From a virus: a DNA stretch of 64,000 nt. Under the pieces are notes generated by a model. That model did not search any database. It saw only the letters and a program-made list of their open reading frames with translations, and was not told the DNA's origin. This document shows positions 2,098 through 34,290 of this stretch, piece after piece. The stretch covers positions 1 to 64,000 of the IMG/VR virus record IMGVR_UViG_3300010373_000004, one strand, 5' to 3'. The position numbers were made by a program, and so were the translations under genes. How positions within the stretch are numbered: the stretch's first letter is position 1; the number at the start of each line of letters is the position of its first letter.

Positions 2098-2938
2098 AAA
2101 ATAATGATTGTATGGTTGATCCATCCTGTGAACTTACAGGATAGTCTGAGGACCAAGATGTTACAGAAAGATGATTTACAGCTTGCATGTAAATAACTTG
2201 TGGTGATATATCTGGACCAATTTTAGAAAAATGATTTGAATACAGATACGTAGCTATTTTATTAAGGTCATTAAGTTGTGGTGAGAGTGTTATAGACTTA
2301 ACATTAGCCGCAGATACTAGTGAGGTTGAGAAATTTGGTTGCGTAATGATTTGAGCAAGGCGTTGAGTTCCGTATGCATCTGATGCTACATTAAGTACAG
2401 TTGTACTTAATTCGCGCATTACTATTGTGTAGTATTCGCCATAAGGACTTTGTGTGGCATCATACGGCATTGATGTAGAAATTATCTTTACGTTAACGCC
2501 AGGTGTACCGCTGTTAGGATTGTTACCAGTCCAACCAAAGTTTGTTTGCATTAAATATGGATATGACCATATTACGTTAGTCTGTCCATCCAACAAAGAT
2601 ATGGTTCTACGAATTGATGGACCATCAAACCCCGCATAACCAGCAATCTCCCAAATAGTTGGTTCTTCCATCCAACGATATGTATGCCACGCATTCATAG
2701 TTGGAAATTCAGATTCAACTACCTTCTTAGTTCTTCGAACTATTTGAGGATTAAGACTGAACACAAGAACTTCCTGAGAAGCCGTAGAGCTTGGTACGGT
2801 AAAGCTCATACGGCCTGCTGAGGAATTTGTTGGATTACCAGCGTTTATTATTTGCTGATTTAACGGATGCTGCGTTAAATCAGTCATTCCACTAGCTATC
2901 GTTTGTGTTGGATCGTCTGTTTGTTGCGGAGAAGGCAT
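2084..2938 (-). CDS. Putative tail tube initiator/baseplate protein
   Basis: Between tape measure and hub genes; 'LVFSLNPQIVRR' resembles tube-initiator proteins. Confidence 0.45.
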   Translation of the reverse strand: MPSPQQTDDPTQTIASGMTDLTQHPLNQQIINAGNPTNSSAGRMSFTVPSSTASQEVLVFSLNPQIVRRTKKVVESEFPTMNAWHTYRWMEEPTIWEIAGYAGFDGPSIRRTISLLDGQTNVIWSYPYLMQTNFGWTGNNPNSGTPGVNVKIISTSMPYDATQSPYGEYYTIVMRELSTTVLNVASDAYGTQRLAQIITQPNFSTSLVSAANVKSITLSPQLNDLNKIATYLYSNHFSKIGPDISPQVIYMQAVNHLSVTSWSSDYPVSSQDGSTIQSLFYDAG

Positions 2939-5325: not shown

Positions 5326-5698
5326 TTAAATCCTGTCTTTCTTGCTCAGTTAATTCAAAACCAAACCATTCGGGATGCATCATCTGATATTGCATCCAAC
5401 CTTCATACGCATTGACTGGAGAAGGTTCACCTGCTTCTTGATTTTGCAGATAGTTTGTAAATATAGAAGTATCTGTAAGAGCCGCTTTGAATAAAGCTAA
5501 TTGCTCCCATAAATCACGTAAATGTTGTTTACGCTCAACTTCTCTATCTTCGTAAACATTAAGAACGATAAATTGTTTACGAAGTCGAGATAGCGGTCCT
5601 TGCTGCCAATTTGTAAAATTAACAGCCTTAGATACAAGCCAAAAATCTCTTAGGCGTTTTCGTTCTTCGGACTCGCTACCTCGGTAAATTCCCCCAAA
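5309..5698 (-). CDS. Tail assembly chaperone, -1 frame extension (gpGT-like)
   Basis: Overlaps 5650..6060 in the -1 frame; slippery heptamer T TTG GGG at 5698-5692. Confidence 0.7.
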   Translation of the reverse strand, partial: FGGIYRGSESEERKRLRDFWLVSKAVNFTNWQQGPLSRLRKQFIVLNVYEDREVERKQHLRDLWEQLALFKAALTDTSIFTNYLQNQEAGEPSPVNAYEGWMQYQMMHPEWFGFELTEQERQDLSGSTT

Positions 5699-6036
5699 AC
5701 ACCAAGAACCTGCATTTCTTTTATCCACATACGCTGGTAGCAATCATATATTGCGTTAACAACAGGTTCAGGAAGTTTTAGTATTTTCTCAAACTTATCT
5801 TCGGGGAAATCGCCTAACTTGGTATCAGCGATATTTTCAATGGCGAAGGCTAGGTGCCATCGCTTTAGTACAAAATCATGTACTATTGGATCACTATGCT
5901 CACTTGCTCTCTTTAAACATTCGAGCATTTCTTCGTCATATAACGTTCTCATTAGTATAGGAACGTTCCGCACTAGTACAGAATCTTTATAAGCTGCACC
6001 AAATACTTCAAGTATAATATCTGTTTCGTTATCCAT
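5650..6036 (-). CDS. Tail assembly chaperone (gpG-like)
   Basis: Acidic ~128 aa ORF upstream of the tape measure gene; likely start MDNETD. Confidence 0.7.
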   Translation of the reverse strand: MDNETDIILEVFGAAYKDSVLVRNVPILMRTLYDEEMLECLKRASEHSDPIVHDFVLKRWHLAFAIENIADTKLGDFPEDKFEKILKLPEPVVNAIYDCYQRMWIKEMQVLGVLGEFTEVASPKNENA

Positions 6037-7138
6037 TTTCTCTAGCTTTCCAGAAATCACCTGGCTTTGCTGTATTACCTAAATCTAGGTAGATTGGTCT
6101 ATAGTTAACAAGTCCAAAATCTTCATGGACTTCAAATAAAACTTGGCTGGGTATTGTAACCCTCTTGAAGCCGGACTGGACAAAGGGTGTACTAGGAGGT
6201 AGAGCACCATTTAAGACCTGCCAGCCCCTTCCTAGCGGCAGACAAGCGGCAGTATGATGATGGCCCATGACCAAAATATCAACGCCATCAAGCATTGCTT
6301 GATACTTCATACCCGCGTTTTGAATTGGATACCAACCAATTCCACCGTAAGAACCAGTGGAAGTTTTGAAACTGGCACCATGTTCATAAGCAACACGCTG
6401 TCCAGCTATGATATCTCCATCGAAGAACGAGTTAGAGTTTCTTAAAGTCAGGCGCCCAGCTTCGATAGATTCTTTGAATATTCGTCGCTCAAATTCAGCT
6501 ATAAGCCACGCATATGTATCATGATAACCAAGTTCACCTAAGCCAGCATAACTAGCTTTCTGACTTGTTCTATCATGATTTCCACCAGTATTACGAACGT
6601 TAACTACTGGAAAAATAGTCTCACAGTTTTGAATAAACTCTACGAGAATATCTACTACGTCAATAGTTTGTTTTGTAACTAGCTCATCTATACCAGTAAC
6701 TTGGCTGGTACGCATTCCATCACCCTCAACTAGATCGCCTAATTGAAGAATCCATAAGTCTGTTACGTTAATAGACTTAGTAGCAATAGAATGTAGAAGT
6801 CGTATTGTTTTCCACAGATGTTGCATCTGCTTACGACTGATATCAGTTGATTGCTCGAACAAATGTCCTGTAGCATCAGCCGCAGTTTTTTGTCCTATGT
6901 GTAAATCGGAAAGTACAAGTACCCACGAATGATTAGGCTTATTCTTAGCCCCTCTGTACTTGTCTGGCAATTCAGGAACTTTAAGTAGCGGTGCGTATTT
7001 ATTTATTGTGTGTATGTATCTGTCTTGTGATGACTTTGCACTTAAAAGTTGTTTAAGTTCATTTATCTGTGCTGCTCGTAATGCAGCTGCTTTTTGTTCT
7101 TCTGCTAACTTATCCAGTTCATTCATAACGTTTCTCAA
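6029..7138 (-). CDS. Calcineurin-like metallophosphoesterase
   Basis: Motifs SDLH, LGDLVEG, GNHD, EHG and GHHH in canonical order. Confidence 0.85.
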   Translation of the reverse strand: MRNVMNELDKLAEEQKAAALRAAQINELKQLLSAKSSQDRYIHTINKYAPLLKVPELPDKYRGAKNKPNHSWVLVLSDLHIGQKTAADATGHLFEQSTDISRKQMQHLWKTIRLLHSIATKSINVTDLWILQLGDLVEGDGMRTSQVTGIDELVTKQTIDVVDILVEFIQNCETIFPVVNVRNTGGNHDRTSQKASYAGLGELGYHDTYAWLIAEFERRIFKESIEAGRLTLRNSNSFFDGDIIAGQRVAYEHGASFKTSTGSYGGIGWYPIQNAGMKYQAMLDGVDILVMGHHHTAACLPLGRGWQVLNGALPPSTPFVQSGFKRVTIPSQVLFEVHEDFGLVNYRPIYLDLGNTAKPGDFWKARENG

Positions 7139-7691: not shown

Positions 7692-9155
7692 TTAAAGCAC
7701 AAATTCTATTGAAAGTGTGAAATCAATTTCAGTAACTTCAACTCTAGGATTGTAGGCAAAGCTAACAGCATATCTTCCTGGCTGATTTGTTACAGGGATA
7801 ACTGATATAGTCTGTGGATTATATCCAAGAATAATATTGTTACCAGATGCAAAGTTAAGAGCATCCTTAACTCTAGCTAAGATCATTATGGCGTTACCTT
7901 GGGTAAAGGCTAGTCCTAGTAATGTCTGAGCATAGCTGTTCAAAATCTTTATTAATCTGTTTTGCTGAGCTACGATATTCTCTCGTCTATAGTTACCAGG
8001 GTTTGCGGTTGTAACACCGTCAAAGACAATAACACCTGCATTATTAACCAGAGCTACAGCACCATACTTACCTAAGTTCACAAGGTCGGTTTGCTGGAAT
8101 GTTTCTGTAAGAGAAACAAATCCATTAATAAGTTTGTGTGTTAGCGGTACAGCAGGATTATCCATAGCCTTAAGAGCAGCTAGAACAGCAGCTAAATAGA
8201 ATCCATCGTATACCTGATTTAAGTTAGTTACTGGATTTCTTCTAGTTCCACCTTGGTTAGTTAAGAAGGTAACATATTGTGAAACTACAAGATTCTGTAC
8301 TGCTGATAGTGCGTTGTTTACTACAGTAGCATAGTTATAACTGTTGTACGCTACACCTAAGAATGCTTCACAAGGCTGATTTAATGAAGCTTGTGAGTTA
8401 CAGAAATTAAGCTCTGCCTGCCATACACCTGAATCACCTGATAATACACAAACAAAATCTGGATTAGCAGCAGACACGGCTGGTAGATTTAGAGCAGCAA
8501 TCAAATCTGTTGGTGTTGCATTAAGGCCATTCTTTGCACCAGACAAAGTATATGTACCAGCTACACCGGCAGTACCAGTACCAAGTACACAAGAAGCTAA
8601 CTGTGAAATCTGATTAATTTGTTGTGCAATAGACGTTGGAGTTCCTGTATATGATTCAAGAACTGTATTCTGACCTGGAGTATTGTCGTACAAAGATACA
8701 GTCTGAACAGTAACACCAAGACCTATAGAATACAGAGATTGTGAGACAACGGCTGTAACAACATTACTACCTGCATAATGTGGAGCAGCAGTAAATGTAA
8801 ATGCTGTTCCAGTTGCTGTATCTGGAACAGAACCTACAGCTTGTGTTGCACCTGCTCTAACACAAATCATATTTAGGTTAGAGAATCTACCCTGCTGTGA
8901 ATAACATAGTTCAGCAGCAGGTTCTAGGGTATAGCCCTGCTGTATAGCATTTGCCTGTGATTGTACGAATGAACCGAATTCAGCCTGTACTTGTGCTAAA
9001 GAAGTACACAGAAATGGTTGATTAGTACCTTGTGGTGCAGTACCAACCAGAACCATAATTCCCGGTTCACCAATGTTTCCGTTACCAGCAGCAGTTGAGT
9101 TTAATACATTAAATGTAACTGCGGGTCCGTTGTAATTTGAAACAGCTTGTCCCAT
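7692..9155 (-). CDS. Tail sheath protein
   Basis: 487 aa; N-terminal 'VLVGTAPQG', C-terminal 'DGVTT...AYNPRVEVTEIDFTL' sheath-like pattern. Confidence 0.85.
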   Translation of the reverse strand: MGQAVSNYNGPAVTFNVLNSTAAGNGNIGEPGIMVLVGTAPQGTNQPFLCTSLAQVQAEFGSFVQSQANAIQQGYTLEPAAELCYSQQGRFSNLNMICVRAGATQAVGSVPDTATGTAFTFTAAPHYAGSNVVTAVVSQSLYSIGLGVTVQTVSLYDNTPGQNTVLESYTGTPTSIAQQINQISQLASCVLGTGTAGVAGTYTLSGAKNGLNATPTDLIAALNLPAVSAANPDFVCVLSGDSGVWQAELNFCNSQASLNQPCEAFLGVAYNSYNYATVVNNALSAVQNLVVSQYVTFLTNQGGTRRNPVTNLNQVYDGFYLAAVLAALKAMDNPAVPLTHKLINGFVSLTETFQQTDLVNLGKYGAVALVNNAGVIVFDGVTTANPGNYRRENIVAQQNRLIKILNSYAQTLLGLAFTQGNAIMILARVKDALNFASGNNIILGYNPQTISVIPVTNQPGRYAVSFAYNPRVEVTEIDFTLSIEFVL

Positions 9156-14829: not shown

Positions 14830-16080
14830 TTAAACGTATGTTAGTGTGATACCAGATTCGTTGATGATCTTATTGAATCCAATGTTCTGTGATACTGTAA
14901 TCATGTTTGTCTGGTCGATTATGTTTCTAGCAGATTCAGTGATATTAGAGTTAACTTCAATCAACTGTTCTAGAAGCAGACTTCGATCCATACCTACAAT
15001 CAGACCACCTGGCATAAATGGCATGTAGACTAGTCTTACACTGCCCCAAATACCTTGTGCTAATTCGATAGTACCGATATTAACACCCTTCTGGTCAAAC
15101 TGAGCAAGAAGAAGCAATGGGTTGATGTTAGGGAACTGCAAAGTAAGAATCTGTAGCAATTCATATAGTCTACCGACGATTGTGCTCATCTGCATAGGCC
15201 ATATAGTAGCCTTGAATCTTAACCAAGTCTGATAATCAAATGTCTTTGAAATCGTTGATGACTGATTTGCATACCCGTACAGAACTAGATATGTATCATA
15301 AACACTTCCTGGTCCAGATGGAGCATTGCTGTTCATGGTAGTCATATTCCAGTTAGGAGCAGCGTTACCATTACCATCACCATTCAGAATAATATCCATA
15401 GCCATTGTAGCCTGGTCTAGCTTATTCTGAGCAGCAATTCTCTGTAGGAATAGAGAGAAGATATCCAGCTTTACTCTACGCATGTATTCATAAGAAGTTA
15501 CGATACGTAGACCATACTTCTTGACATACACGTTATGTTCAGAAGTCTGAATATAGACGGTAGGTAGCTCGGCTCTTTCACCAGTATGCTTTAATCTTCT
15601 CTGTTCCTGAGTATCATTCATATAGATAGTCTTGTAACCAGCGCTATCTATAGGTGTAACCTTAGCTACAAGTTCACCTAGAACATCCTGTGCCAAAGGT
15701 GTAACTCTCATCTGTCGGTTTATAAACTCAGGGAACAGAATCCATGACTGAGGATCACCAGATACGAATGTATTTGATGTATCTCTAGTTACAGATAGCT
15801 CAGGCTTCCAGAACTCGGATAGGCTAGAAGCCGGAATACCGCGCATAGCATCAGACTGAGTTCTGATGTTAAATCTTCGAAGCTGTCGCTGGAAGGCATC
15901 AGTACCGTCGTATTCTCTTTCGTTCTTAGAAGGAGTTGGATTAATTTGTTCTAGTAACTGAGAGAATGTTAACTTACGATCATTCATAGCTCGTTCATAT
16001 GACTGAACAGCAGTAGGACCGAAATCTACTTCTCTAAAGTCTGACTTTACTTCAAAGTCTGGAACAATAACGTCTGCCAT
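14830..16080 (-). CDS. Major capsid protein (HK97 fold)
   Basis: 'LFPEFINR', 'GERAELPT', 'KKYGLRIVTSYEYMRR', 'ILNGDGNGNAA'; follows the scaffold and decoration genes. Confidence 0.85.
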   Translation of the reverse strand: MADVIVPDFEVKSDFREVDFGPTAVQSYERAMNDRKLTFSQLLEQINPTPSKNEREYDGTDAFQRQLRRFNIRTQSDAMRGIPASSLSEFWKPELSVTRDTSNTFVSGDPQSWILFPEFINRQMRVTPLAQDVLGELVAKVTPIDSAGYKTIYMNDTQEQRRLKHTGERAELPTVYIQTSEHNVYVKKYGLRIVTSYEYMRRVKLDIFSLFLQRIAAQNKLDQATMAMDIILNGDGNGNAAPNWNMTTMNSNAPSGPGSVYDTYLVLYGYANQSSTISKTFDYQTWLRFKATIWPMQMSTIVGRLYELLQILTLQFPNINPLLLLAQFDQKGVNIGTIELAQGIWGSVRLVYMPFMPGGLIVGMDRSLLLEQLIEVNSNITESARNIIDQTNMITVSQNIGFNKIINESGITLTYV

Positions 16081-17672: not shown

Positions 17673-18473
17673 TTAATCCTTCTTATGCTTACGTGCTTTT
17701 CGATAAATTCTCATAGCACGTATTAAATAAGATTCATCAGTTTCGTGCAAATCTTCTTTTAAGAACGTAATAACCTCAGCACGACGCATGTCTTTTCTGA
17801 GATTACCACCGTATGTCATATTATACCGTGCTATGTCCTTATCGTCTAATTTACCTAAAGCTCTTAATTGAGCAGCTTTAAGAGAAACTGCGTTAGAATT
17901 AGAACCTTTCCAGACATGAGATAGCTCTGCTGCATGAGCATTATAAATACCATAAGTAGCTTTTCGTAACTTACCACTTACTTCGTATTCTTTGCCTGGA
18001 AGATGTGAACATGCTCGGCTTAGAACTTCGTTATCACAAAGTTCACAAACCTGCTTACCTTCATAGAAACGAACACTCACGTCCTTATAGATACCGGCAG
18101 TAACCGCACGAATATAATCATTAGACGGTATACCAAGGTCTACGCCTCTAACAACATAAATAGAGGCTAAAGTTTCACCATCACGGTACTCACCATTATA
18201 TGTACGGCCCATGACCTTTTCTTCATCATGATTGATTAGAAAAGATCGACCAGCCTGGTAATCTTCTGCGTAATTACGTAATGTAGTATCATCCATTCTA
18301 GAATGGAAAGAATCATAGGTACGATCAGAAGCCTTAGCTGAGAATACGAAAATATCCTCGGGAGAAACATCTCCCAAGGTTTGCTTTCGTATAAGAGCCA
18401 TATCACGTTCTGTAGGATTACCTACTGTTCCTGTAATAGGGAACTTAGAAAAATCAAAGAAATTACTTCGCAT
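17673..18473 (-). CDS. Prohead protease
   Basis: 'FLINHD', 'DVSVRF', CELC..CSHLPG and 'ELSHV' motifs of HK97-type proteases. Confidence 0.75.
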   Translation of the reverse strand: MRSNFFDFSKFPITGTVGNPTERDMALIRKQTLGDVSPEDIFVFSAKASDRTYDSFHSRMDDTTLRNYAEDYQAGRSFLINHDEEKVMGRTYNGEYRDGETLASIYVVRGVDLGIPSNDYIRAVTAGIYKDVSVRFYEGKQVCELCDNEVLSRACSHLPGKEYEVSGKLRKATYGIYNAHAAELSHVWKGSNSNAVSLKAAQLRALGKLDDKDIARYNMTYGGNLRKDMRRAEVITFLKEDLHETDESYLIRAMRIYRKARKHKKD

Positions 18474-18583
18474 GAGGGTCTCTCCAAAACTCTATGTTTG
18501 CACTTTTACAATTAGGACAAACATTTGGAGCATTTAAAAGTAACTCTGTTCTGTGACAAGAGTTACAGTATACCTTGATATAG

Positions 18584-18742
18584 TTAATCATTGGTCTTTG
18601 GTGAGAATATAAACTTACACTTTAAACACTGGCGAACTTCATTTAGAGATTCCTTATATTTCTTAGGAACTCCCATAACCTTCACCATTCCGTCAGCGTA
18701 TGATTCTTCACACCGAGGACACTTTTCTTCGTCTAATTTCAT
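18584..18742 (-). CDS. Small Zn-ribbon protein (52 aa, below track cut-off)
   Basis: MKLDEEKCPRC...CLKCKFIF; start overlaps the upstream stop. Confidence 0.55.
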   Translation of the reverse strand: MKLDEEKCPRCEESYADGMVKVMGVPKKYKESLNEVRQCLKCKFIFSPKTND

Positions 18743-19089
18743 TATTGTAATTCCGCTGGTCCAGATTGTAGGACTGTTACTGTCACATTACCTGAAACCA
18801 TATTTGCTGTTCTTGTTCTAAACTGACCTAACGCTTCTGGCTTATGGTTAGCGTCCATCGTATAAACACCGGCAACTCCAGTATTTGCATACAAAGATGC
18901 ATTTCCAGCACCTTGTAGCACAACTGGAACCCAATTCTGTCCATCTATAGAACATTCAAAGAATATAGTTCCACCAAAAGTTCCAGTTACTTGAACGCCT
19001 AACGCATCATAGCCATTCAAATTAACAGTAGAGCCATTTGCATTGGCAACCTGCGCATTTTGCGTTGTAGTAACAACTGTAGGAACCAT
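18742..19089 (-). CDS. Hypothetical beta-sandwich (virion) protein
   Basis: 'VQVTGTFGGTIFFECSIDGQNW' pattern common in phage structural proteins. Confidence 0.5.
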   Translation of the reverse strand: MVPTVVTTTQNAQVANANGSTVNLNGYDALGVQVTGTFGGTIFFECSIDGQNWVPVVLQGAGNASLYANTGVAGVYTMDANHKPEALGQFRTRTANMVSGNVTVTVLQSGPAELQ

Positions 19090-19725
19090 CTAACTTAACC
19101 AAGAAAATGCCCAACCAATTTGGACATTAGCACCAGAATTATTCGGGTCGAAAAGCTGCTTAGCTGCTGTTAACAACTGAGCATCTGTATATCTATTTTG
19201 ACTAAAATCTACATGCTGACAACTATCTAAAATTCTATCGTCAACAGTAGATTCAGCAACTACAATTGTGAGAAAATGATTACTATCAATATTGACTAAA
19301 GTTTCAAGATTAACAGCAATCGTTTTAAACTGAATTGGAGTTGTTGTACCAGGAAAATTAACAGACCTTAAATCAGCAGAAGCTGTATCTGGATCAGTAA
19401 TTTCACTGATTCTAAGAGGACAGATAAGTCCTTGCTTATTTAATATTTGGTCAGAACTCTCGTATACCCAAGCATTAAACTGTTGTGCTAACGTCATTCC
19501 ATTAGCATATTCACTAATACCATGATTAACATTTGGTAGATTCCATAAAGTATCTACCAACTGCTTATCTTTATCTACATCTAAAGGCCATAATCCTGCC
19601 TTAACAGCAGCCATTGTGAGTGTTCTAACACCACAAGTTTCATCATAACCTTGTTGATTAGCATCGACTACGGCCTGATCGTCAGGCCCTACTATTGAGG
19701 CCGGAACAGTAGGGCTTAATCGAAA
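19090..19725 (-). CDS. C39-like cysteine peptidase domain, probably expressed by -1 frameshift from 19716..19913
   Basis: Frame is open upstream of ATG 19614 and encodes QQGYDETCGVRTLTMA (Cys at 19635-19633), then NHFLTIV and ILDS. Confidence 0.6.
   Translation of the reverse strand, partial: FRLSPTVPASIVGPDDQAVVDANQQGYDETCGVRTLTMAAVKAGLWPLDVDKDKQLVDTLWNLPNVNHGISEYANGMTLAQQFNAWVYESSDQILNKQGLICPLRISEITDPDTASADLRSVNFPGTTTPIQFKTIAVNLETLVNIDSNHFLTIVVAESTVDDRILDSCQHVDFSQNRYTDAQLLTAAKQLFDPNNSGANVQIGWAFSWLS
19671..19725 (-). promoter_or_regulatory. -1 frameshift signal: T_TTC + 6-nt spacer + H-type pseudoknot
   Basis: Stem 1 GCCCTACTGTT/AATAGTGGGGC (11 bp); loop CGGCCT pairs with downstream AGGCCG. 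Confidence 0.65.
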
Positions 19726-19913
19726 GAAATTGGGTCTACTGTATTAGTTAACTTATTATAAACAAGAAGCTTCTTTACCGGATTTCCGTTAGCATCTGCT
19801 ACTTGAACTTGTGCAACAGACATATCTGGAGTGAAATACTGTTCATTAGAAAGTGGAGTAGCATTGTTAGCTGTAATCCAATTTTGAAAGCCTAAGCCTA
19901 ATGTAAGAGCCAT
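19716..19913 (-). CDS. 65-aa protein; N-terminal module of the frameshift fusion
   Basis: RBS (AGGA) and ATG; ends PISFD-stop at the slip site. Confidence 0.7.
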   Translation of the reverse strand: MALTLGLGFQNWITANNATPLSNEQYFTPDMSVAQVQVADANGNPVKKLLVYNKLTNTVDPISFD

Positions 19914-19933
19914 GTTAGTATCCTATCACTTTA

Positions 19934-20230
19934 TTAGCCACCGTGCAATTTTGCTACTATTTCAAAAGTAGTGTACCCAAGGTTAACAAGAATTGCTATA
20001 GCTGGAAGAATCATTGTTTTTAAAGACAATGATCTCTTTTTATCACTCTTTAATTCATCAACATCAGTACGTAATTCTTTAATATCTCTAGTAGCTTCTT
20101 CCTTAAAAGAAAGAAATCCTTGCTGAGCTTGTAGAATCAAATCTACTTTAGCTTCAACTTTAGCTACTAGCTCTTTAACGGTATAACGAACAGTAGGTTG
20201 GTCGTCAGGACTAGCCATCATTTCCTGCAT
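19934..20230 (-). CDS. Coiled-coil protein with C-terminal TM (holin/XhlA-like)
   Basis: Heptad region followed by one hydrophobic helix. Confidence 0.5.
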   Translation of the reverse strand: MQEMMASPDDQPTVRYTVKELVAKVEAKVDLILQAQQGFLSFKEEATRDIKELRTDVDELKSDKKRSLSLKTMILPAIAILVNLGYTTFEIVAKLHGG

Positions 20231-20471
20231 CTTTTTCCTCGTCCCAAGTAATGTTCAAGCTGCCATCATTACCTACTAAAAGCATTAAACTTGGATTTGA
20301 TTCAATTTTTTCATAGTCCTCTGCCGAAAGAATATCTTTTATGATATTTTCTTTTGTCCAAGCAGCAAGTTTAACTTGCTCCTGTATAATTGTACTTTCG
20401 ATGACTTGATTAGCAGCATCTTTTTTCATATTCCAGGCTAGCGTATGACCTGAATCTACTTTTACTTTCAT
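20211..20471 (-). CDS. Hypothetical protein
   Basis: Coupled ORF in the operon. Confidence 0.5.
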   Translation of the reverse strand: MKVKVDSGHTLAWNMKKDAANQVIESTIIQEQVKLAAWTKENIIKDILSAEDYEKIESNPSLMLLVGNDGSLNITWDEEKDAGNDG

Positions 20472-21031
20472 TATACTGTTCCTTGAATCGTTGCTCTAGA
20501 ACCTGCAACTAGATTTGTACTTAAATTAGTCTGTACCTTTATTGTATTTATGGCTGCCGTGCTTCGCCAGCTTGCACTGGTTAGACTTACAGCCATATTT
20601 GCCTGTGTAGTATCTGCGCAACCACTACTTCCTGTAACACCTTTATTAAGGGTAGTACTGGCATAATCGAGAAACATCGCACGACAAACACCAACAATAC
20701 CGGATGCCGTACTAGTACCACATGAACCCCATTGAAACTGAATTACAGTATCCGATGGAACCACACCCGTGCCAGGTGCGCTACTACTTGTTGTATTGAT
20801 ACTCTGATATCCATAGTGCGAGGCTGTATCAGAGTTTATAATAACTTGTAAATTCTCATTAGTATGCGCTCCATCTCCTCTTAAAGAGGTTAGGAGTTCA
20901 GCATCTTTATAAGAACCACTTAAGGAGCTAAAAGTAATGTTTGCAACGGACGAACCTAACACGCTATCTGCTAAGTTCTGCATACCGACTCCACCACTAA
21001 TCTGTGAAGTTTTTAATAGTGGTTGAGACAT
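20471..21031 (-). CDS. Fibre/receptor-binding-type protein, paralog 2
   Basis: 'MQNLADSVLGSSVANITFSS...WRSTAAINTI...GSR' closely parallels the upstream gene. Confidence 0.6.
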   Translation of the reverse strand: MSQPLLKTSQISGGVGMQNLADSVLGSSVANITFSSLSGSYKDAELLTSLRGDGAHTNENLQVIINSDTASHYGYQSINTTSSSAPGTGVVPSDTVIQFQWGSCGTSTASGIVGVCRAMFLDYASTTLNKGVTGSSGCADTTQANMAVSLTSASWRSTAAINTIKVQTNLSTNLVAGSRATIQGTV

Positions 21032-21585
21032 TAGTTTATTCCTTGAAGTGTGAATCTAGAACCTGTGACGAAATTTCCTCCGGCAATACTTTTGATTGCC
21101 GTGATAGCGGCGGTACTTCGCCAACTTCCAGCCACCGTTCTGGCATACGTATTAGTAGCGGTCGAATCAGCGTAGCCAACAGTTGACACGTAGCACTTCT
21201 CGGCCGTTGTCCCCGTGTAGTTGGGAATAAGAATATGAGCAACCCCGAACGTATTAGCTCTAGGAGCATTAGCGTCCGGGATAGTTGCCCATATGGCGAA
21301 GGACGTTTGCCCAAGGCTGTTTCCACCGACCGCCGATGCGTTGTTTCCCGCTACGTACTGCGTGTCGTAATTGGCGCCCGTATCGCTGTTGAATTGGCCT
21401 GACACATTTTCTGCGGTTGCTGCCTGATCGCCACGAGCATCAAGGATATACACCATATCCTTATACACTTGACTAATAGATGAAAATGTAATAGAAGCTG
21501 CTGACGATCCTAAGGTAGTGTCCGCTAGGTTCTGCATACCGACACCACCGCTCACCTGAGAAACAGGAACTTGATTAACACTCAT
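21031..21585 (-). CDS. Fibre/receptor-binding-type protein, paralog 1
   Basis: 'MQNLADTTLGSSAASITFSSI...WRSTAAITAI...GSRFTLQG'. Confidence 0.6.
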   Translation of the reverse strand: MSVNQVPVSQVSGGVGMQNLADTTLGSSAASITFSSISQVYKDMVYILDARGDQAATAENVSGQFNSDTGANYDTQYVAGNNASAVGGNSLGQTSFAIWATIPDANAPRANTFGVAHILIPNYTGTTAEKCYVSTVGYADSTATNTYARTVAGSWRSTAAITAIKSIAGGNFVTGSRFTLQGIN

Positions 21586-21586
21586 A

Positions 21587-22147
21587 TTAAAGATACCTAT
21601 TCAAACGTGCGGAAGCTAAGACTAAATCACGATCACTGGAATTAGAATCGCGCAAAATAGCCTTATCTCTTTCATCCTGCTCGTCTTGTAATTTCTTAGC
21701 CTCAGCAGCCTTATCCTCTGCCTCTTGTGCTAAACGTTTCTGCTCCATCGCAGCATCATGTTCCTCTTGTGTGTACTCATGCCACACAACAAAAGCACGA
21801 CCACTAGCACGACCACTACCATCACAATCATCACAACCATTATGTTGCACTAATTTACCGAAGATATGAGCACCTAATAGTTTCGTAGTCCCTGGATAAT
21901 CTGGATCAGGAACAATCTGTCCACCACCACAAGTAGGGCAGGGACCAGAAGCATCAATATCGATACCAACTAATCTACCTGATGCAGAAGTATTACCTCC
22001 ACAATCAGGACATGGAACGCCATCAGTAACTTTATCTAGACAATGTTCTAAGTGAGAGCAGTGGGCGGTGCCGTCAGCTTGAACAACACCGTGCCCACCA
22101 CATGTCTGACAAAGATTGTAATGACTTGGATGAGGATTATGATACAT
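21587..22147 (-). CDS. Cys-rich protein with DnaJ-like CxxCxGxG repeats and coiled-coil C-terminus
   Basis: CQTCGGHG, CPDCGGNT, CPTCGGGQ, CDDCDGSG. Confidence 0.6.
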   Translation of the reverse strand: MYHNPHPSHYNLCQTCGGHGVVQADGTAHCSHLEHCLDKVTDGVPCPDCGGNTSASGRLVGIDIDASGPCPTCGGGQIVPDPDYPGTTKLLGAHIFGKLVQHNGCDDCDGSGRASGRAFVVWHEYTQEEHDAAMEQKRLAQEAEDKAAEAKKLQDEQDERDKAILRDSNSSDRDLVLASARLNRYL

Positions 22148-22148
22148 A

Positions 22149-24014
22149 TTAGACCGCCTTACTATATGCGTATATAATTGCTATTCCAGCAGCGCCAGTG
22201 TTACCAACACCGTTACTACTATTAGGGCCTGTTGTGCCACCTTGACCACCACCACCAACACTAGGTAAACCACTTGCTGTTCCACCAGCACCCATTGAAG
22301 ATGTACCGCCAGGACCGCCTCCGTAAATTCCACCGCTAGGCATGATAACTCCCGGTCCTCCAGCTTGGCCTGATATTGTAATATCGCCTGTACTACTACC
22401 ACCACTACCACCAACACCACCTGTAGCACCAAACGCCGGAGTGGAAACAGCAACACCTGAATTCCCTCCAGTGCCGCCTTTAGCTACACACGTTGTAGAA
22501 TTAAATGTTGAATCATTACCATTATTTCCAGCAGCGCCTGCACTACCTGTAGTACCGCCAGCACCTACAACTACTGTATAATTGCCTGTCGGATTAGCAA
22601 ACCACTTCTGCGCAAACGCACCGCCACCGCCACCACCGCCTGCTGCTCCTTGATTAGTGCTTGTAGCAGCAAATCCTCCACCAGCACCACCGCCGCCAAT
22701 AAGTTGAATTAATAAAGCGTCCGCGCCTGCTGGAGTAGTATAAGTATTAGAACCTGATGTATATACTGTTGGAGCACCAATTAACTTATAGTTTGATCCT
22801 AACTTACCACTAGCATCAGTAACAGGAATAGTATTAGCTGTAATAGACGGAGATAATGCTGTATTATACCCATTTAGAGAGGACGCATTGCCTGCGCCTG
22901 TGCCTTGCGAACCATAGCCAATAATTACATTTGTCACACCATCAAATGCCGACGTAAATGTAAGGACACTACCAGCAATCGTGTAATCTGTGCCTGCACG
23001 CTGAATCCCCGAACCTCTGGCAACAAATAAGACTGTGCCAGGAGTCTGTGATAACGTGACAGTTGTTGCAGTATTTGCTGGTGTATATTCCTCATGCTGG
23101 AACGTTACTGCACCGCTGAATGTACTAGAAGTAGTGTAGACGATAAAGATAGTATCGGTAGATAACGCCGTAGTAAATGTGACTGTACTACCTACAACAG
23201 TTACATCTGTTCCAATCGCTAAACCAGAACCATTCTTTCCAACGTATAGTAACGTTACACCAGAATCATTTAATGTAACAGTAGTTCCTGTAACACTTGC
23301 ATTATAGAAAGTTTTAAATACAGATACCCCACCCTGGCTACCCGCATTCGCTTGAAATGTTGGTAAACTACCTGGACCATTATCAGTTAACACGTAACCT
23401 GCTGAAACAGGTTTAGCTATTGCTACTTGCGTAGCATTTGGACCTTGACCTAACAAAACACCAATAGGTATGTTGTAGTAACCTGTTCCACCGTATAAGG
23501 CAGACAGCGGTGTAGACAACAACAGTGTGTTAATGTTTGCTGTATTAAGAACAGAAAAAGTACGTGTTGCTACGTTTCCGTTAACAAATAATGAATTACC
23601 AATAGTAGCGGCTTCACTTATTGCAATAGTAGAAACATTAAGATTTGTAACACTTTCTGCATATGTAGAAATATTTTGTCCTACACTTACAGAAGATGAA
23701 ACATTTAATGAAGAAGTAAAACTACCAGCAACACCAGAAAATGTATCTGTGCCGACTGAATAGGTAGATATTGAATTTGCTGTTACAGTACCTAAATTAG
23801 ATGTACCATAAGCAGAAATATTATCAAATGATCCATTTGTTGCATTTATAGTAGCAGCAACTAACGGTCCACCTAGCTGGAGAGATTGACCAATAAACTC
23901 AGTAGCAGATACTTCATATGAAGAAATGTTACCTGATATATTAACATTTCCTGTTTGTGTACCAGAAGGGTTTAATAAAACCGCATTGGCAAAGAAAACA
24001 CCACCGTGTCTCAT
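22149..24014 (-). CDS. Fibre protein with Gly-rich C-terminal domain
   Basis: Ser/Thr/Asn-rich N-terminus, two internal 'GTD(V/Y)T..GS..TFT.A' repeats, 'YTTPAGA...IGGGGAGG' Gly-rich domain. Confidence 0.75.
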   Translation of the reverse strand: MRHGGVFFANAVLLNPSGTQTGNVNISGNISSYEVSATEFIGQSLQLGGPLVAATINATNGSFDNISAYGTSNLGTVTANSISTYSVGTDTFSGVAGSFTSSLNVSSSVSVGQNISTYAESVTNLNVSTIAISEAATIGNSLFVNGNVATRTFSVLNTANINTLLLSTPLSALYGGTGYYNIPIGVLLGQGPNATQVAIAKPVSAGYVLTDNGPGSLPTFQANAGSQGGVSVFKTFYNASVTGTTVTLNDSGVTLLYVGKNGSGLAIGTDVTVVGSTVTFTTALSTDTIFIVYTTSSTFSGAVTFQHEEYTPANTATTVTLSQTPGTVLFVARGSGIQRAGTDYTIAGSVLTFTSAFDGVTNVIIGYGSQGTGAGNASSLNGYNTALSPSITANTIPVTDASGKLGSNYKLIGAPTVYTSGSNTYTTPAGADALLIQLIGGGGAGGGFAATSTNQGAAGGGGGGGAFAQKWFANPTGNYTVVVGAGGTTGSAGAAGNNGNDSTFNSTTCVAKGGTGGNSGVAVSTPAFGATGGVGGSGGSSTGDITISGQAGGPGVIMPSGGIYGGGPGGTSSMGAGGTASGLPSVGGGGQGGTTGPNSSNGVGNTGAAGIAIIYAYSKAV

Positions 24015-29033: not shown

Positions 29034-29268
29034 TGTTCAAATCCACGGTGTAATTCGTTGGTGTGACTGCTGTACTGTCTCCACCTTTGGCTACGAAGAT
29101 CACGCCAGCCGTAGTCAGCATGGCCATCACAGCCCCTTGAAGTGCCCCAGCCCACACAGGAGCCCCTAGAGCAGCTACAGGGCCAAGAGCCGTCAATCCT
29201 ACGAAGGTTAGTAAGATAACTAACAAAACCCAAGGTGAAACAGGTATATGAAAATTAGCTACTTTCAT
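29017..29268 (-). CDS. Putative holin
   Basis: 83 aa with two TM helices. Confidence 0.45.
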   Translation of the reverse strand: MKVANFHIPVSPWVLLVILLTFVGLTALGPVAALGAPVWAGALQGAVMAMLTTAGVIFVAKGGDSTAVTPTNYTVDLNNAKSY

Positions 29269-31114
29269 GGTCAGGTCCTTCCATTCCTAATAATTCTGCA
29301 TGTTGCATGCAGTAATCGCCATTTGAAATTTTCTTTTTACAATCTTTGTAATTACAATCATTTCCTAAGTCCATAGGGAACAAAGGCCAAGACTGCTGAG
29401 CATCTGAGTTAAAGTCTCTTGCATTCTTGGACTTTGTACTTCCCTTTCCGGACGTTACTTGTGATGTATTCTTATCTCTACCAGATGCAACCTCTCCAGT
29501 ACCACCTTGCTTCTGTGAAACAAGATGTTCCCAATCAGGTTGTGCTTTTGCAGCTTTAGTACCAGTTACCTTCAAAGAAGCCTGGTCCTGTGTCTGCCAG
29601 CCATTATCTCTAATCATCTGGTGATTGCCAATCTCAACTCTATGAGCCTGCGCATCTTGTAATCGCTGAGTTGATCTAATAGCATCCCAAGAAGAAACAA
29701 CGCGCAAATCATGATATCCAAGTAAGAAAGCATTTAATACAAGATGCTTCTTAATATGGTCAGATATTACATCACGATATGCTTCTACATCATGAACATA
29801 CATTTCAAACTGATTAGCAGTAAGTTCTGAATTACCGGTATCCTCTACGTCCATGAACTGAGGGATTTCTTTAAGTGCAGTAACAATTTCTCTTTTTACA
29901 GCACTTATAATTTTATCAATACCAGTAAGGTCTGCGCCTTTAACATCTTGCGTTACTTCAAGATAATCAGGATGAACAAACGCATCCCTAGGCTGGAGAG
30001 CACCATATTGAGACTGAACTTCACTAATTCTGTCGTTTATGAATGACGCTAACTTAGCAGCACTATTCATTTCATTTGGTGAAATCTGTGCCATTAACTT
30101 CATTAAGATTTCAGACTTTAGACTAAAATCAGTGTGGCCCCATGCCTGGTTTTCAACAACCCTTTGAAGATCACGAAATAGTTGTGCCGCAAAGAAGATA
30201 ACCTGTAAGGCAGGCCAAGCTGGAGAGCGGCCATACGGATCATCAATACCGGGATCAAAAGGGGTATATGCAAAACTAGCAAGATTCATTTCCCTAAAAG
30301 GAAGTGTATTCATCTGGTGCATATCATGATACAGTTCTGGAAGATTCATTCCCCACAGATACTGTAACTGAAATGGTCTTGGAAACTGATTAGCATCCCG
30401 CTCAAAATAGATTGTATCAGGACAAACAGGAAAGATATTTCCAGTTCCCTTCAAATCTGGCATGATTTCAGAATCATGACATGCAGCGCCCCAACAGAAT
30501 ATAGAAAACACCAACTGCTTTATAATCATGTTGATGCCACCATAGAAAGGATTGATTCTTGTTATACAATCATCAATCATTCCTTGACCGCGTGGGTCCT
30601 CTGAACCATCTTTCTTAACAGCCTTGAAAGTTACTTTGGTTCCAACCATTCGTAACTTATTATTCAATGCCTTAGCAATTTCAGGAGAAACATCAGCTAA
30701 AACATTAAGTAATCCGCCTGGTGTCCAACCATAAGCGTTAAGGTCTTGAATATCAATTTGCTGAGGGTTTTTTTTCGGTATCCAAAAATAACCGTGTGTA
30801 TAACCCGACGCAGCAGCAAATGGATTATAATTAGTAGGTTGTGATTGACGACCTACAGCAAGACCGAAACCTTGCGCTCCACGTAATGCTGTCCAAATTG
30901 ATTCTGCTGTTGGTGACACAGGTAATTGAGCCATTTCCACTTTTTCAAGTGGAGGCGTCATTATCTTACCCGGTGATGACTTTGGATGCCCAAAAGCATC
31001 TTTTGTCAGTTCACCAGAACCTTCTGATTGTGGCTTATTAAAACTGGAATTATCTGGCACCAGTCGCTTGTAAAGAGCATCCAGAACTGCTACATGAAAT
31101 TTATCTAATTGCAT
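29255..31114 (-). CDS. Portal protein
   Basis: 619 aa downstream of terminase; 'DDPYGRSP' portal motif. Confidence 0.8.
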   Translation of the reverse strand: MQLDKFHVAVLDALYKRLVPDNSSFNKPQSEGSGELTKDAFGHPKSSPGKIMTPPLEKVEMAQLPVSPTAESIWTALRGAQGFGLAVGRQSQPTNYNPFAAASGYTHGYFWIPKKNPQQIDIQDLNAYGWTPGGLLNVLADVSPEIAKALNNKLRMVGTKVTFKAVKKDGSEDPRGQGMIDDCITRINPFYGGINMIIKQLVFSIFCWGAACHDSEIMPDLKGTGNIFPVCPDTIYFERDANQFPRPFQLQYLWGMNLPELYHDMHQMNTLPFREMNLASFAYTPFDPGIDDPYGRSPAWPALQVIFFAAQLFRDLQRVVENQAWGHTDFSLKSEILMKLMAQISPNEMNSAAKLASFINDRISEVQSQYGALQPRDAFVHPDYLEVTQDVKGADLTGIDKIISAVKREIVTALKEIPQFMDVEDTGNSELTANQFEMYVHDVEAYRDVISDHIKKHLVLNAFLLGYHDLRVVSSWDAIRSTQRLQDAQAHRVEIGNHQMIRDNGWQTQDQASLKVTGTKAAKAQPDWEHLVSQKQGGTGEVASGRDKNTSQVTSGKGSTKSKNARDFNSDAQQSWPLFPMDLGNDCNYKDCKKKISNGDYCMQHAELLGMEGPDHESS

Positions 31115-31940: not shown

Positions 31941-33914
31941 TTAGTACCCTGTAGGGCGGCTTTGAGTCGTTCCTTGTCTGTATTGTCCATAAAAACCACG
32001 TTGTTGTTGATTTCCTCTGATAACACCTAATCCTGGAAAGACTGGAGCAGATTTCTCCGGGGCCGCGCTTTTAACTCCAAAGAAAAGATCTTGAAGTGCA
32101 GTTTCTACCGGGATTGATGAATTATCAAGTCTAGTAGCTTTAGCCGCTACTAAAGCGTATGTTAATGAATGAGCAAAATGATCATCACCAGTATTTATGT
32201 ATATAACTTTACCTGTTGGTACTTGCTTCTTTAATTGTCCATTTTGAAGCGTCTGGACGGAACCATCGTCTACAATTCTAGTAAGCGCCATTAAGTGACG
32301 CGGAAACTGTCCGAACCCGCTGTCATCTTCCAAACCGCCAACTCTATGGATAGGGTAGGGCAAAACAATGTTTTTCTTAAATACATAGTCGAACATAAGC
32401 TCCAAGCATTCCGAACGGCCCATTGTAACTGAGTAGGTAAATTCTTTGGAAGATTCCAAATCATCTTCATCATAGACGTATAGATTAGCACCTTTATTGG
32501 CCCAACCTGGAGCGTAGTGTCCAGCATAAATGCGATACGGAAATGCTTTACACAATTCCATTGTTTTACGATATTCTGGATGATTGTCAATTACGCCTCG
32601 TAGACAGTCGTATTTTTTGAATATAGGAGGTAGTTCTTCAAACTCCTTAGGACTACCAGCAAATAATAATACAGGTACATCACGACCTCCGGTCATTTCG
32701 TATAGTGATGCATTATCTCTAGGATAACCAATCACTGTAACATGTAGAATGTTTTGTCCTACATCAACTCCCATGAAACAACGCTTCCAGTCACCATCAT
32801 AGGCAGTATAAAATTGATTAAACACAGGTGAAGCATTATTGGCAGGTTGGCAGGCTTGTAAATGTTCAAGAGAACACTGAACTCCTTGGGGAGCCCTAGG
32901 AAGTCCACAGACAGAATTATAGAATTCTTGTGTCGCAGCCTCACTTAATTTACCTTCTCTTTCTCTTTCTACTGTCTTAGCTATTGAATCAAACAACTCA
33001 CCAGCAAGCCTGTTAGAGAATAGCTTAGGTAAGTGATAGCCTTCATGGTCCACGTTAGGACTAGATAATTCACGTTGATTAACCCAACGACCATTCCAAA
33101 CATTACTGATATGAGCACAAGAAGGACACCCAACGTAATAGTCTTTACCACGATGAAAGTTCGTACCAATTTTTTCATCAGCATAGTCTATTGTTAATTG
33201 TGATTGCTTAACGCCACTAAGCGGTCTAATCCAATCGTGGACCAGGGCCAAATCATGCTCATAGCCGCAACGTGAGCATTTAACCATCCAGGTTTTGTTG
33301 GTGCTCCGCTGAATGAGGGAATCAATCCCCCTATTTGGATATTTTGGTGTTGATCCGCCACGATAAAAAGGGTGCAGTGAGGACTGTGCTCTAATCTTAC
33401 CAGCTTCGATGACGGTATCAGCCATTTCGTCAACTTCATCGAAAATAACAACATCAGCATCAACAGATATGACCTGGCGTCTATTTTGCGATCCTCGGAA
33501 GTATATAAATCCATCACCAACTTGTTTAATTTGAACATTTTGTTTTGTCTTTACTTTCTTTTGGTTTATAACCCTATTAGCGGTTCGCTGGGCGAGATAA
33601 GGATTAGAAGATATCTCGGGATCAAGTCTGGCAATAGAATAGTCATTTAGCTGCTTTTCAGATGGGAAGTAATAAGCAACAACGCCTCTATCGCCCCATT
33701 TAACATCAGCAGCAAAAAATGCTAACGTAATGAGATATTCTGAGAAGAATAACTGAGCCGCTTTTTCAACATACATTTCCATCGACTGGTCACGATAGAT
33801 TGCTTTGTATGGTGGAATTATACTAAAAGGTTTCCCTTTAAGTGTTCTACGATTCAAAGACCAAGTATAAAGGTCTATCTTCTCTAAGGGACTAAGTGGT
33901 CCTACAAGTGGCAT
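31941..33914 (-). CDS. terL: Terminase large subunit (lambda GpA-like)
   Basis: 'VEKAAQL' Walker A variant, 'IFDEVDE' Walker B, 'GSTP', Zn fingers, 'MGVDVG' nuclease, 'DDHFAHS'. Confidence 0.85.
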   Translation of the reverse strand: MPLVGPLSPLEKIDLYTWSLNRRTLKGKPFSIIPPYKAIYRDQSMEMYVEKAAQLFFSEYLITLAFFAADVKWGDRGVVAYYFPSEKQLNDYSIARLDPEISSNPYLAQRTANRVINQKKVKTKQNVQIKQVGDGFIYFRGSQNRRQVISVDADVVIFDEVDEMADTVIEAGKIRAQSSLHPFYRGGSTPKYPNRGIDSLIQRSTNKTWMVKCSRCGYEHDLALVHDWIRPLSGVKQSQLTIDYADEKIGTNFHRGKDYYVGCPSCAHISNVWNGRWVNQRELSSPNVDHEGYHLPKLFSNRLAGELFDSIAKTVEREREGKLSEAATQEFYNSVCGLPRAPQGVQCSLEHLQACQPANNASPVFNQFYTAYDGDWKRCFMGVDVGQNILHVTVIGYPRDNASLYEMTGGRDVPVLLFAGSPKEFEELPPIFKKYDCLRGVIDNHPEYRKTMELCKAFPYRIYAGHYAPGWANKGANLYVYDEDDLESSKEFTYSVTMGRSECLELMFDYVFKKNIVLPYPIHRVGGLEDDSGFGQFPRHLMALTRIVDDGSVQTLQNGQLKKQVPTGKVIYINTGDDHFAHSLTYALVAAKATRLDNSSIPVETALQDLFFGVKSAAPEKSAPVFPGLGVIRGNQQQRGFYGQYRQGTTQSRPTGY

Positions 33915-34290
33915 ATATGACCTCCATACATGTATGACCAGTAACAGGATCATACATAACTCCACAATTAAGGCACTTTGTTAAACTTGTGCTAATGTAA
34001 GGAGCAGTAACAGTACACGAATGCGTTTGTCCATGAGGAACCCATGAACCACACAAGGAACACCTGTAACCAGTTATATATACTGGAGCAGAAGGAACTG
34101 TCCACATATTTCTGTTTTGGTAAAGTGCGATTAAAATTTCAGCTAAATCATAATCTGCATCATTTAAATGCACTAATTGAACATAATCTTCCTTATTCTT
34201 GTCGATTGGCTGGACGCCAAGCGCCGTAACGATGCTGGAGAGCATTAACTGATTTCTTTCTTTTCTATCAATCTTGAACATTGAACTCAC
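33892..34290 (-). CDS. Hypothetical Zn-finger protein
   Basis: Two CxxC...HxC motifs. Confidence 0.45.
   Translation of the reverse strand: MSSMFKIDRKERNQLMLSSIVTALGVQPIDKNKEDYVQLVHLNDADYDLAEILIALYQNRNMWTVPSAPVYITGYRCSLCGSWVPHGQTHSCTVTAPYISTSLTKCLNCGVMYDPVTGHTCMEVIYATCRTT

Follow-up and report, generated by a model that had tools for sequence, protein, structure and literature searches.

How can a phage gene encode a cysteine peptidase if the catalytic cysteine lies upstream of the first canonical start codon of its reading frame? This question is raised by a locus on the minus strand of a 64,000-nucleotide (nt) stretch of viral DNA (the window), which is the start, positions 1 to 64,000, of the IMG/VR record IMGVR_UViG_3300010373_000004; the record is 83,776 base pairs (bp) long, has direct terminal repeats and is rated 100% complete. 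At this locus a short open reading frame (ORF) of 65 amino acids (aa), ORF65, is followed in the -1 frame by an ORF encoding the predicted catalytic part of a papain-like peptidase. We consider the best explanation, and a probable one given the letters of the two frames and of their junction, to be a programmed -1 frameshift that yields two products, one of 65 aa and a fusion of 274 aa. This would be a new instance, credible though unproven, of a known recoding device in an uncultured soil phage. The coordinates of the features discussed below are collected in Table 1.

The two frames were first described in an earlier interpretation made from the letters alone (hereafter the sequence-only reading), and most of that description was borne out. 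The minus-strand letters confirm that ORF65 ends in TCT TTC GAT TAA and contains the T_TTC pointed out there. As had also been stated, the -1 frame opens only a few codons ahead of this site, its last upstream stop lying six codons before the slip codon, and it encodes QQGYDETCG, with the Cys upstream of the ATG at 19614, then NHF and then ILDS. The putative catalytic positions of the -1-frame product (P0001) are Gln31, Cys37 (codon 19635-19633), His156 (19278-19276) and Asp173 (19227-19225). Forty-three codons separate the upstream TAA from the ATG at 19614 and none of them is ATG, GTG or TTG; the in-frame GTG that had been placed near 19692 does not exist, the codon being GTA, and the only near-cognate start among the 43 is an ATA at 19695-19693. 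The product reported by the gene caller (P0003) is a protein of 174 aa that begins at Met44. Because the Gln and the Cys lie upstream of the sole canonical start, such a product would be without the Gln, without the Cys nucleophile and, as judged from the structural model described below, without the first turns of the core helix. In the predicted fusion, ORF65 residues 1-64 are joined to P0001 residues 8-217, giving a protein of 274 aa in which the catalytic residues become Gln88, Cys94, His213 and Asp230.

That ORF65 and the -1-frame ORF are the halves of one gene is well supported by comparison with homologous sequences. A HMMER search of 1.84 billion cluster representatives (E <=0.001) returned five proteins: the window's own, P0004 (166 aa, 42% identity, E 2.9e-17), P0006, P0007 (198 aa) and P0005. 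The last of these (1179 aa, repetitive, eight short stretches at E 2.8e-5) was taken for a repeat-driven match and left out before alignment. Word-indexed protein searches found only the window's own proteins (including the 174-aa call), P0006 and P0007. P0006 is a single 250-aa ORF; ORF65 aligns with its residues 2-58 (39% identity, E 2e-11) and the -1 frame with its residues 79-242. The shared LLVY and TCG stand 41 residues apart in P0006 and would be 40 apart in the fusion, so that a shift at U_UUC would rebuild a P0006-like architecture without loss. The best-conserved part lies upstream of the ATG and reads NQQGYDETCG in the window, NQQGYDDTCG in P0007 and FQGFDDTCG in P0006. Around it 11 of 23 positions are identical with P0007 (overall identity in the four-protein alignment, 26-29%), and P0001 His156, Asp173 and Ser174 are invariant in all four rows of that alignment. 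As we read this conservation, the part upstream of ATG 19614 must be translated.

The homologs also bear on the age of the split. P0004 has a cluster mate, P0008, that is 98% identical to it (4 differences in 166), and each of the two is encoded on a Logan contig of its own (8,902 and 2,112 nt). Both were called from a Met that aligns with Met44 of P0001, a position at which the unsplit homologs have Glu. On the simplest reading, the Cys-bearing part of the P0004/P0008 lineage would likewise be out of frame with a start codon, in which case the split predates a protein divergence of 58%. The intact Cys motif of the window suggests that the upstream part is still under selection there, and an old split together with an intact motif would fit programmed recoding, not decay. 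The break itself is present in a second assembly: positions 19400-20000 lie whole in one 33,290-nt record of the Logan assembly of run X1, at a word depth of 12, with no differing letter and no indel. This identity excludes an assembler quirk. Run X1 is probably the same sample as the IMG/VR contig, and the comparison was made at contig level and not with an independent sample, which leaves features of the reads themselves or of the phage population sampled to be considered. The single-base assembly error that the sequence-only reading had named as fatal to its proposal is thus countered as far as the assembler goes, while effects of the reads or the population stand.

The peptidase itself was identified by its predicted fold. 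An AlphaFold2 (AF2) model of P0006, built from a six-row alignment, has a mean predicted local distance difference test score (pLDDT) of 74.3 and a predicted template modelling score (pTM) of 0.59. In this model Cys94 starts the helix 94-105, His195 starts the strand 194-200 and Asp212 stands just after the strand 207-211. Foldseek against the PDB placed papain-like structures first, with Alr0975 (E 3.6e-4), CtaG and the C39-like 3erv. In a VIA-align structural comparison with 999 chains the best match was PeiR, a C71 pseudomurein endoisopeptidase (Z 14.3, root-mean-square deviation 2.5, 134 aligned), and others were the P210 CD lyase (Z 12.6), Alr0975 (Z 12.5), 3erv (Z 12.2), papain-like toxins of contact-dependent inhibition (CDI) systems (Z 11.7-12.0), staphopains (Z 10.5-11.0), the PCAT1 C39 domain (Z 10.4), 3zua (Z 9.3) and cathepsins (about Z 9). 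All of these alignments begin at residue 91 or 92 of the P0006 model, just before Cys94. The Gln stands six residues ahead of the Cys and the Asp 17 residues after the His, spacings that we take to be the papain pattern, and the catalytic residues are conserved in all covering rows. A papain-like (clan CA) cysteine peptidase with conserved Gln, Cys, His and Asp is therefore supported by the modelled fold.

The sequence-only reading had called this protein C39-like, which holds for its shape (3erv, Z 12.2) and not for its family. No C39 match (PF03412, PF13529) was found in Pfam at E <=10 for P0001, P0004, P0006 or P0007, and a six-frame search of the whole record for Peptidase_C39_2 (PF13529) was also empty at E <=10. 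Neither the peptidase nor ORF65 matched anything in Pfam, PHROGs or NCBIfam, and a sequence profile search of the PDB gave only S100 noise (E >=0.06). ESM-Atlas features pointed to C39-type clusters with scores of 0.92-0.93 and 125-138 shared features, under the mark of 170. Moreover, the fold with its Gln, Cys, His and Asp does not single out C39, because it is common to other clan CA families. The clan CA structures 3erv, PCAT1, PeiR and the C83-like Alr0975 are alike in fold (Z 10.4-14.3), with the Cys at a helix start and the His and Asp on neighbouring strands; unlike these, the present proteins match no Pfam, NCBIfam or PHROG model, and their sequence identity to the structures is 8-15%. 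Given the absence of any Pfam, PHROG or NCBIfam match, the empty C39_2 search and the ESM features under the mark, we filed the protein, as modelled, in an orphan papain-like family with 4-5 known members that would be C39-like in shape only.

At the junction, the slip motif U_UUC is followed by a 6-nt spacer (GATTAA) and by an 11-bp stem (stem 1). Spacer and stem are as the sequence-only reading had described them, and the stem is folded by ViennaRNA, also within the minimum-energy structure of a 101-nt region. The 5' arm is GCCCTACTGTT (19715-19705), the 8-nt loop CCGGCCTC (19704-19697) and the 3' arm AATAGTAGGGC (19696-19686); the last had been given as AATAGTGGGGC, mistyped by one letter. 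Ten of the pairs are Watson-Crick and one is G-U, and the four nearest the ribosome are G-C. In the whole minus-sense sequence of 64,000 nt only three hairpins, stem 1 among them, have 11 or more contiguous pairs with no more than one G-U and a loop of 3-9 nt, and the stem 1 hairpin ranks tenth in stability among all 32-nt segments of that sequence. The loop hexamer CGGCCT and the AGGCCG downstream are, as had been claimed, exact complements (duplex -9.9 kcal/mol). A 6-nt complement of the loop in the 5-30 nt after the stem is rare by chance: when the 40 nt downstream were shuffled 20,000 times it arose in 235 cases, and when 20,000 pieces of 40 nt were drawn at random from the window, in 27. 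Pairing of the two hexamers as a proposed stem 2, a type of structure that ViennaRNA does not model, could close an H-type pseudoknot. With a stem 1 of 11 bp, a stem 2 of 6 bp, a first loop of 1 nt and a last loop of 9 nt, it would resemble what is presumably the minimal pseudoknot of the infectious bronchitis virus (IBV) type. A weaker C_CCA, with a 15-nt spacer, lies 9 nt upstream of U_UUC and is a less likely shift site. The hairpin falls in linker-coding sequence that is poorly conserved at the protein level, and Rfam gave nothing meaningful over 19400-20000 (best E 2.4, far under the gathering score).

We propose the following course of events. Most ribosomes would read ORF65 and stop at the TAA at 19718-19716, giving the 65-aa N-terminal module. 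A minority would pause while UUC (19724-19722) occupies the A site, since the G-C-based stem of 11 bp, possibly closed into an H-type pseudoknot by CGGCCT and AGGCCG, starts 6 nt downstream. The tRNA-Phe would then slip one base back onto UUU, translation would go on in the -1 frame, and the resulting fusion would consist of the N-terminal module, a linker of about 30 residues and the peptidase domain. The shift rate is probably a few percent at most, so that the 65-aa module would far outnumber the fusion. Three of the features by which a frameshift of this kind can be recognised were found at the locus, namely a -1 ORF with a short overlap and no start before the essential residues, a Z_ZZN motif, and a stable structure 5-9 nt further on.

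In IS3-family elements, the small N-terminal product OrfA is made by default and a fusion with the catalytic domain, OrfAB, by a shift. The locus described here is like these elements in the U_UUC tetramer class, the short spacer (6 nt here vs 5 nt in the IS3 test construct) and the G-C-rich stem with pseudoknot potential, as far as they are described in the available portion of Sharma et al. 2014 (PMC4066793). It is unlike them in being a papain-like peptidase gene of a phage structural region, with no transposase and no sequence relation, and in being known from sequence alone. According to the same portion of that paper, Z_ZZN tetramers alone are barely shifty in E. coli, and with the IS3 pseudoknot 6 of 16 tetramers reach 0.26-5.6%, in the order A_AAG >> U_UUC > U_UUU > C_CCU = C_CCC > A_AAA; it counts 87 tetramer vs 403 heptamer sites in IS1/IS3 elements, the tetramers being predominantly A_AAG and U_UU[U,C]. 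U_UUC with a 3' pseudoknot, which the sequence-only reading had put forward as an IS3-type -1 signal, is thus confirmed by this portion as a class tested in bacteria, where it came second.

Two phage systems offer further comparisons. Lambda gpG/gpGT, in the available part of the review PMC5009743, is likewise a case of two N-terminally identical products of a double-stranded DNA phage, whose ratio is fixed by -1 shifting at a low level. Tail-chaperone frameshifts differ, however, in their heptamer-like motifs, usually without a strong pseudoknot, and in joining two chaperone parts, whereas here an enzyme domain would be added. Two-polypeptide endolysins, as described in the available text of PMC9430671, also derive from one gene two products that share a module. 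There the second product comes from an in-frame internal start, so that the C-terminal domain and the stop are shared, whereas in the present gene the N-terminal part would be shared and the frames differ; the word 'frameshift' is absent from that available text.

Several observations weigh against a programmed frameshift. It is inferred from a single sequence, in a contig that is a metagenome consensus at about 12x and whose second assembly is probably from the same reads. The slip motif is a tetramer and not an X_XXY_YYZ heptamer, and re-pairing of the P-site tRNA-Ser from UCU to UUC would be poor; tetramers gave low shift rates in E. coli in the available portion of PMC4066793. A Shine-Dalgarno-like stimulator is not visible upstream of the slip site. 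The fold of the 101-nt region has a z of only -1.67, with 12 of 200 shuffles equally stable, and the downstream arm of stem 2 can also pair in a competing hairpin of 7 bp (GGCCTGA-CGA-TCAGGCC, -10.7 kcal/mol), which overlaps the last three pairs of stem 1. A stable hairpin right after a stop also fits a transcript-end or processing signal, and a similar one follows the major head gene. P0006 works as a plain single ORF and shows the family functioning in that form, so that no need for two products is demonstrated. The window's own P0001 gave a poor AF2 model (pLDDT 48.8), for which reason the fold claim rests on the homolog P0006. Finally, the DNA of the homologs was not found in scans of viral, metagenome or genome contigs. 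Viral contigs searched with P0001 or alignment A1, metagenome contigs searched with A1 and genome contigs searched with P0007 yielded no related locus, nor were loci found with the protease-like neighbour as query. A scan for the motif QG[YF]D[DE]TCG returned 0 stretches in viral, 23 in metagenome and 19 in genome contigs, none of these 42 loci encoding a relative (tblastn, E <=1e-3), and a second motif scan of viral contigs returned 0 stretches. Phage GenBank records gave no match either by blastn of 18700-20300 or by tblastn of P0006.

The alternative that survives best is an unprogrammed one-base deletion, either real in the sampled population or a consensus error, that split a single-ORF gene next to a hairpin standing there by coincidence. 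We regard this as unlikely. The unsplit state that it presupposes does exist, in P0006, and a recent break would equally leave a conserved Cys motif ahead of the ATG; such a deletion leaves unexplained, however, that P0004 and P0008, at 42% identity, were called from the same Met. This speaks for an old break, after which a Cys region no longer translated would have decayed. The break adjoins a short T run in a metagenome contig with a word depth of about 12 whose other assembly is probably of the same sample, yet the two assemblies agree and show no indel. The gene is found in none of four fragmentary relatives and so may be dispensable. A chance origin would nevertheless have to place a rare stem 6 nt past the sole good slip motif of an interval of about 28 nt, which we estimate at about 1 in 1000, and to add as coincidences the stem 2 complement (0.1-1.2% by chance) and the 0-frame stop two codons on.

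It is also conceivable, but in our view quite improbable, that the locus encodes two separate proteins, with ORF65 standing alone, the hairpin acting as a transcript-end, processing or stability signal, and translation downstream starting at ATG 19614 or at the rare ATA. The gene callers did take Met44 in P0003 and the equivalent Met in P0004 and P0008, and a Met is specific to the split lineage at this position, the unsplit homologs having Glu. A start at Met44 would nonetheless cut the core helix, when the fold matches begin just before the Cys, and the open but start-less 43 codons hold the most conserved motif of the family, Gln-x5-Cys, which would be hard to keep untranslated. The ATA is in frame ahead of the Cys, but it lies inside the 3' arm of the stem and has no Shine-Dalgarno motif. 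As for the hairpin, its position directly after a stop recalls the terminator-like hairpin after the major head gene, but no T run follows the stem and the terminator scan is without it. The 101-nt 'gap' that two proteins would leave between ORF65 and ATG 19614 is unusual here, most neighbours in the operon touching or overlapping. Other candidates were rejected outright: transcriptional slippage, for which a T3 run is too short; a +1 shift, the +1 frame closing at a TGA within 15 codons; stop read-through, the 0 frame past the TAA closing at a TAG 9 codons on; and an intrinsic terminator, the stem lacking a T run and the hairpin being missing from the terminator scan.

If a programmed frameshift is accepted as the probable reading, what might its products do? 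Our leading guess, a tentative one drawn from structural comparison, is that the enzyme would act on a peptide bond of the cell wall, as a lysin. The top structural match, PeiR (Z 14.3), is an archaeal-virus lysin, with non-lytic papain-like enzymes nearly as high, and the neighbours among viral models (BFVD) include proteins named 'Lysozyme' or 'Peptidase' (E 3e-4 to 1e-2, template modelling (TM) score about 0.44) as well as hydrolase parts of tail proteins, the whole set lying at E 3e-4 to 5e-2 with TM scores of about 0.4. Of nine wall-hydrolase Pfam families searched in the 83,776-bp record one matched, Peptidase_M23. This domain lies at 49-348 (minus strand, E 1.3e-13), at the C-end of the tail-region ORF 1-2124 (open frame 711 aa), and its presence there suggests a host with peptidoglycan. 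Against a lysin role stand the equally good matches to non-lytic papain-like enzymes, the position of the gene among fibre and head genes, and the scans of Pfam, PHROGs and NCBIfam, in which no wall-binding domain model matches ORF65. The 98-aa upstream neighbour, which the sequence-only reading had called holin-like, has no family match, and that label is a conjecture resting on one hydrophobic stretch.

For ORF65, ESM clusters gave weak leads to N-terminal domains of the fibre type (Mtd_N in 43% of a 58-member cluster, score 0.91; Phage_tail_C, 0.90), and its Pfam scan gave only sub-threshold Ig-like matches. Such leads would suit a virion-anchored enzyme. Co-assembly of the short and long products is a conjecture; a complex prediction with two ORF65 copies scored 0.04 against a mark of 0.42 and gives no verdict either way. 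The fullest version of the proposal is a long shot: an old, conserved frameshift, in the window and in P0004/P0008, that would set a low fixed ratio of the 65-aa module, of fibre type or wall-binding, to the fusion, the two co-assembling by way of the module they have in common into a hetero-oligomeric lytic or virion enzyme. If true, this would be the first lysin-type phage enzyme with a subunit ratio set by recoding and not by an internal start.

Frameshifting by -1, tetramer sites, pseudoknot stimulators and phage genes that use frameshifting are all already known. The new part would be the kind of gene, one for an orphan papain-like peptidase that acquires its catalytic domain through the shift. 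A literature search over titles and the starts of abstracts turned up neither an endolysin nor a phage papain-like peptidase expressed by frameshifting, and the word 'endolysin' occurs 0 times in the examined 300,000 characters of the review PMC5009743. The tetramer-plus-pseudoknot signal is associated chiefly with IS3-type transposases, and frameshifting in phages chiefly with tail chaperones and capsid genes; if the proposal is true, this type of signal extends to an enzyme gene of a tailed phage. The P0006 lineage with its single ORF and the lineage with a ratio set by the ribosome would then form a natural pair, which could show why a phage throttles or dilutes a cysteine peptidase. The shortening of the gene by gene callers to a Cys-less protein of 174 aa would be an annotation error that frameshift-aware callers should catch, in a peptidase group with 4-5 members among the 1.84 billion representatives.

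Table 1. Features of the split peptidase gene and of its surroundings in the window.
Feature	Coordinates	Strand	Remarks
Whole gene, as proposed to be recoded	19090..19913	minus	0 frame 19913-19716, then -1 frame to TAG 19092-19090
ORF65 (P0002), 65 aa, 0-frame product	19716..19913	minus	starts at ATG 19913, ends TCT TTC GAT TAA
0-frame stop TAA	19716..19718	minus	two codons past the slip codon; last three letters of the spacer GATTAA
Last upstream -1-frame stop TAA	19744..19746	minus	with the 0-frame stop bounds the shift window 19743-19719
-1 frame, stop to stop (P0001), 217 aa, predicted papain-like peptidase part	19090..19743	minus	
First canonical start of the -1 frame, ATG 19614 (Met44 of P0001)	19612..19614	minus	7 codons after the Cys codon
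Slip motif U_UUC (0 frame TCT TTC)	19722..19725	minus	after a -1 slip from UUC, tRNA-Phe can pair again with UUU
Stem 1 hairpin, 11 bp, 8-nt loop	19686..19715	minus	-15.6 kcal/mol alone (ViennaRNA)
Loop hexamer CGGCCT, proposed 5' arm of stem 2	19698..19703	minus	
AGGCCG, proposed 3' arm of stem 2	19671..19676	minus	9 nt past stem 1
Upstream neighbour, 98 aa	19934..20230	minus	polar N-terminal part; one C-terminal hydrophobic stretch, residues 74-92
Fibre-like glycine-rich protein	22149-24014		PHROG 'tail fiber assembly', 1.6e-28; one flank of the split gene
Portal	29255-31114	minus	PHROG scan
Terminase large subunit	31941-33965	minus	PHROG scan
Major head protein	14830-16080	minus	PHROG scan
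Tail sheath	7692-9155	minus	PHROG scan

The genome that carries the split gene is that of a tailed phage with a contractile tail, since PHROG scans mark a terminase, a portal, a major head protein and a tail sheath. The sole sequencing run containing the stretch is labelled soil metagenome, and no RNA run is listed as containing it. The flank of the split gene opposite the fibre-like gene is a head-maturation block made up of a 266-aa protein, a 348-aa protein and then the major head protein. The nearest IMG/VR relatives, four genomes (L045-L048) that were reached via the major head protein (47% identity) and are 31-71% complete, share with the window the portal, the 266-aa protease-like protein, a 172-aa protein and the head protein. 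The distance from the portal to the protease-like gene is about 6 kb in these relatives vs about 11 kb in the window. None of the four carries the fibre, paralog, peptidase or 115-aa genes that were tested; for the peptidase the best tblastn E was 0.15 and a profile search was also negative in all four, at the completeness given above. The block at 18.5-29 kb of the window, including the peptidase gene, looks accessory.

Some smaller observations were made around the gene. The TAG of the peptidase (19092-19090) abuts the ATG (19089) of a 115-aa beta-rich protein on the same strand, and this direct adjoining suggests that the two genes are translationally coupled. Between the 115-aa gene and the protease-like gene, within the head module, two small proteins of 52 and 42 aa with the pattern CxxC...CxxC are encoded at 18463-18742 (minus strand). 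Upstream of the split gene lie two tandem paralogs, at 20471-21031 and 21031-21585 (minus strand), that are 40% identical and have no family match; both open with about 12 residues followed by SGG-VGMQNLAD. C39 peptidases remove double-glycine leaders. By analogy, and as an idea only, the SGG of the paralogs could be the sign of a leader that is cleaved by the C39-like peptidase, whose gene lies 0.6-1.7 kb downstream. Between the paralogs and the fibre-like gene, at 21587-22147 (minus strand), lies a gene for a cysteine-rich protein of 186 aa with a charged C-terminal helix and weak, sub-threshold matches to DnaJ CXXCXGXG and Anti-TRAP zinc fingers.

Further along the minus strand, a hairpin of -19.2 kcal/mol with a T-rich end stands at about 14816-14785, in the 90-nt gap directly 3' of the stop of the major head gene, and looks like a terminator or attenuator. 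The ORFs 5650-6060 and 5309-5743, also on the minus strand and upstream of a 795-aa ORF (2938-5325), overlap by 94 nt, the second being in the -1 frame. Within the overlap GGGGGAA, a common phage motif according to the PRFect paper, occurs at 5695-5689 and reads G_GGG_GAA in the 0 frame, and the region 5309-6060 looks like the usual frameshift of tail assembly chaperones.

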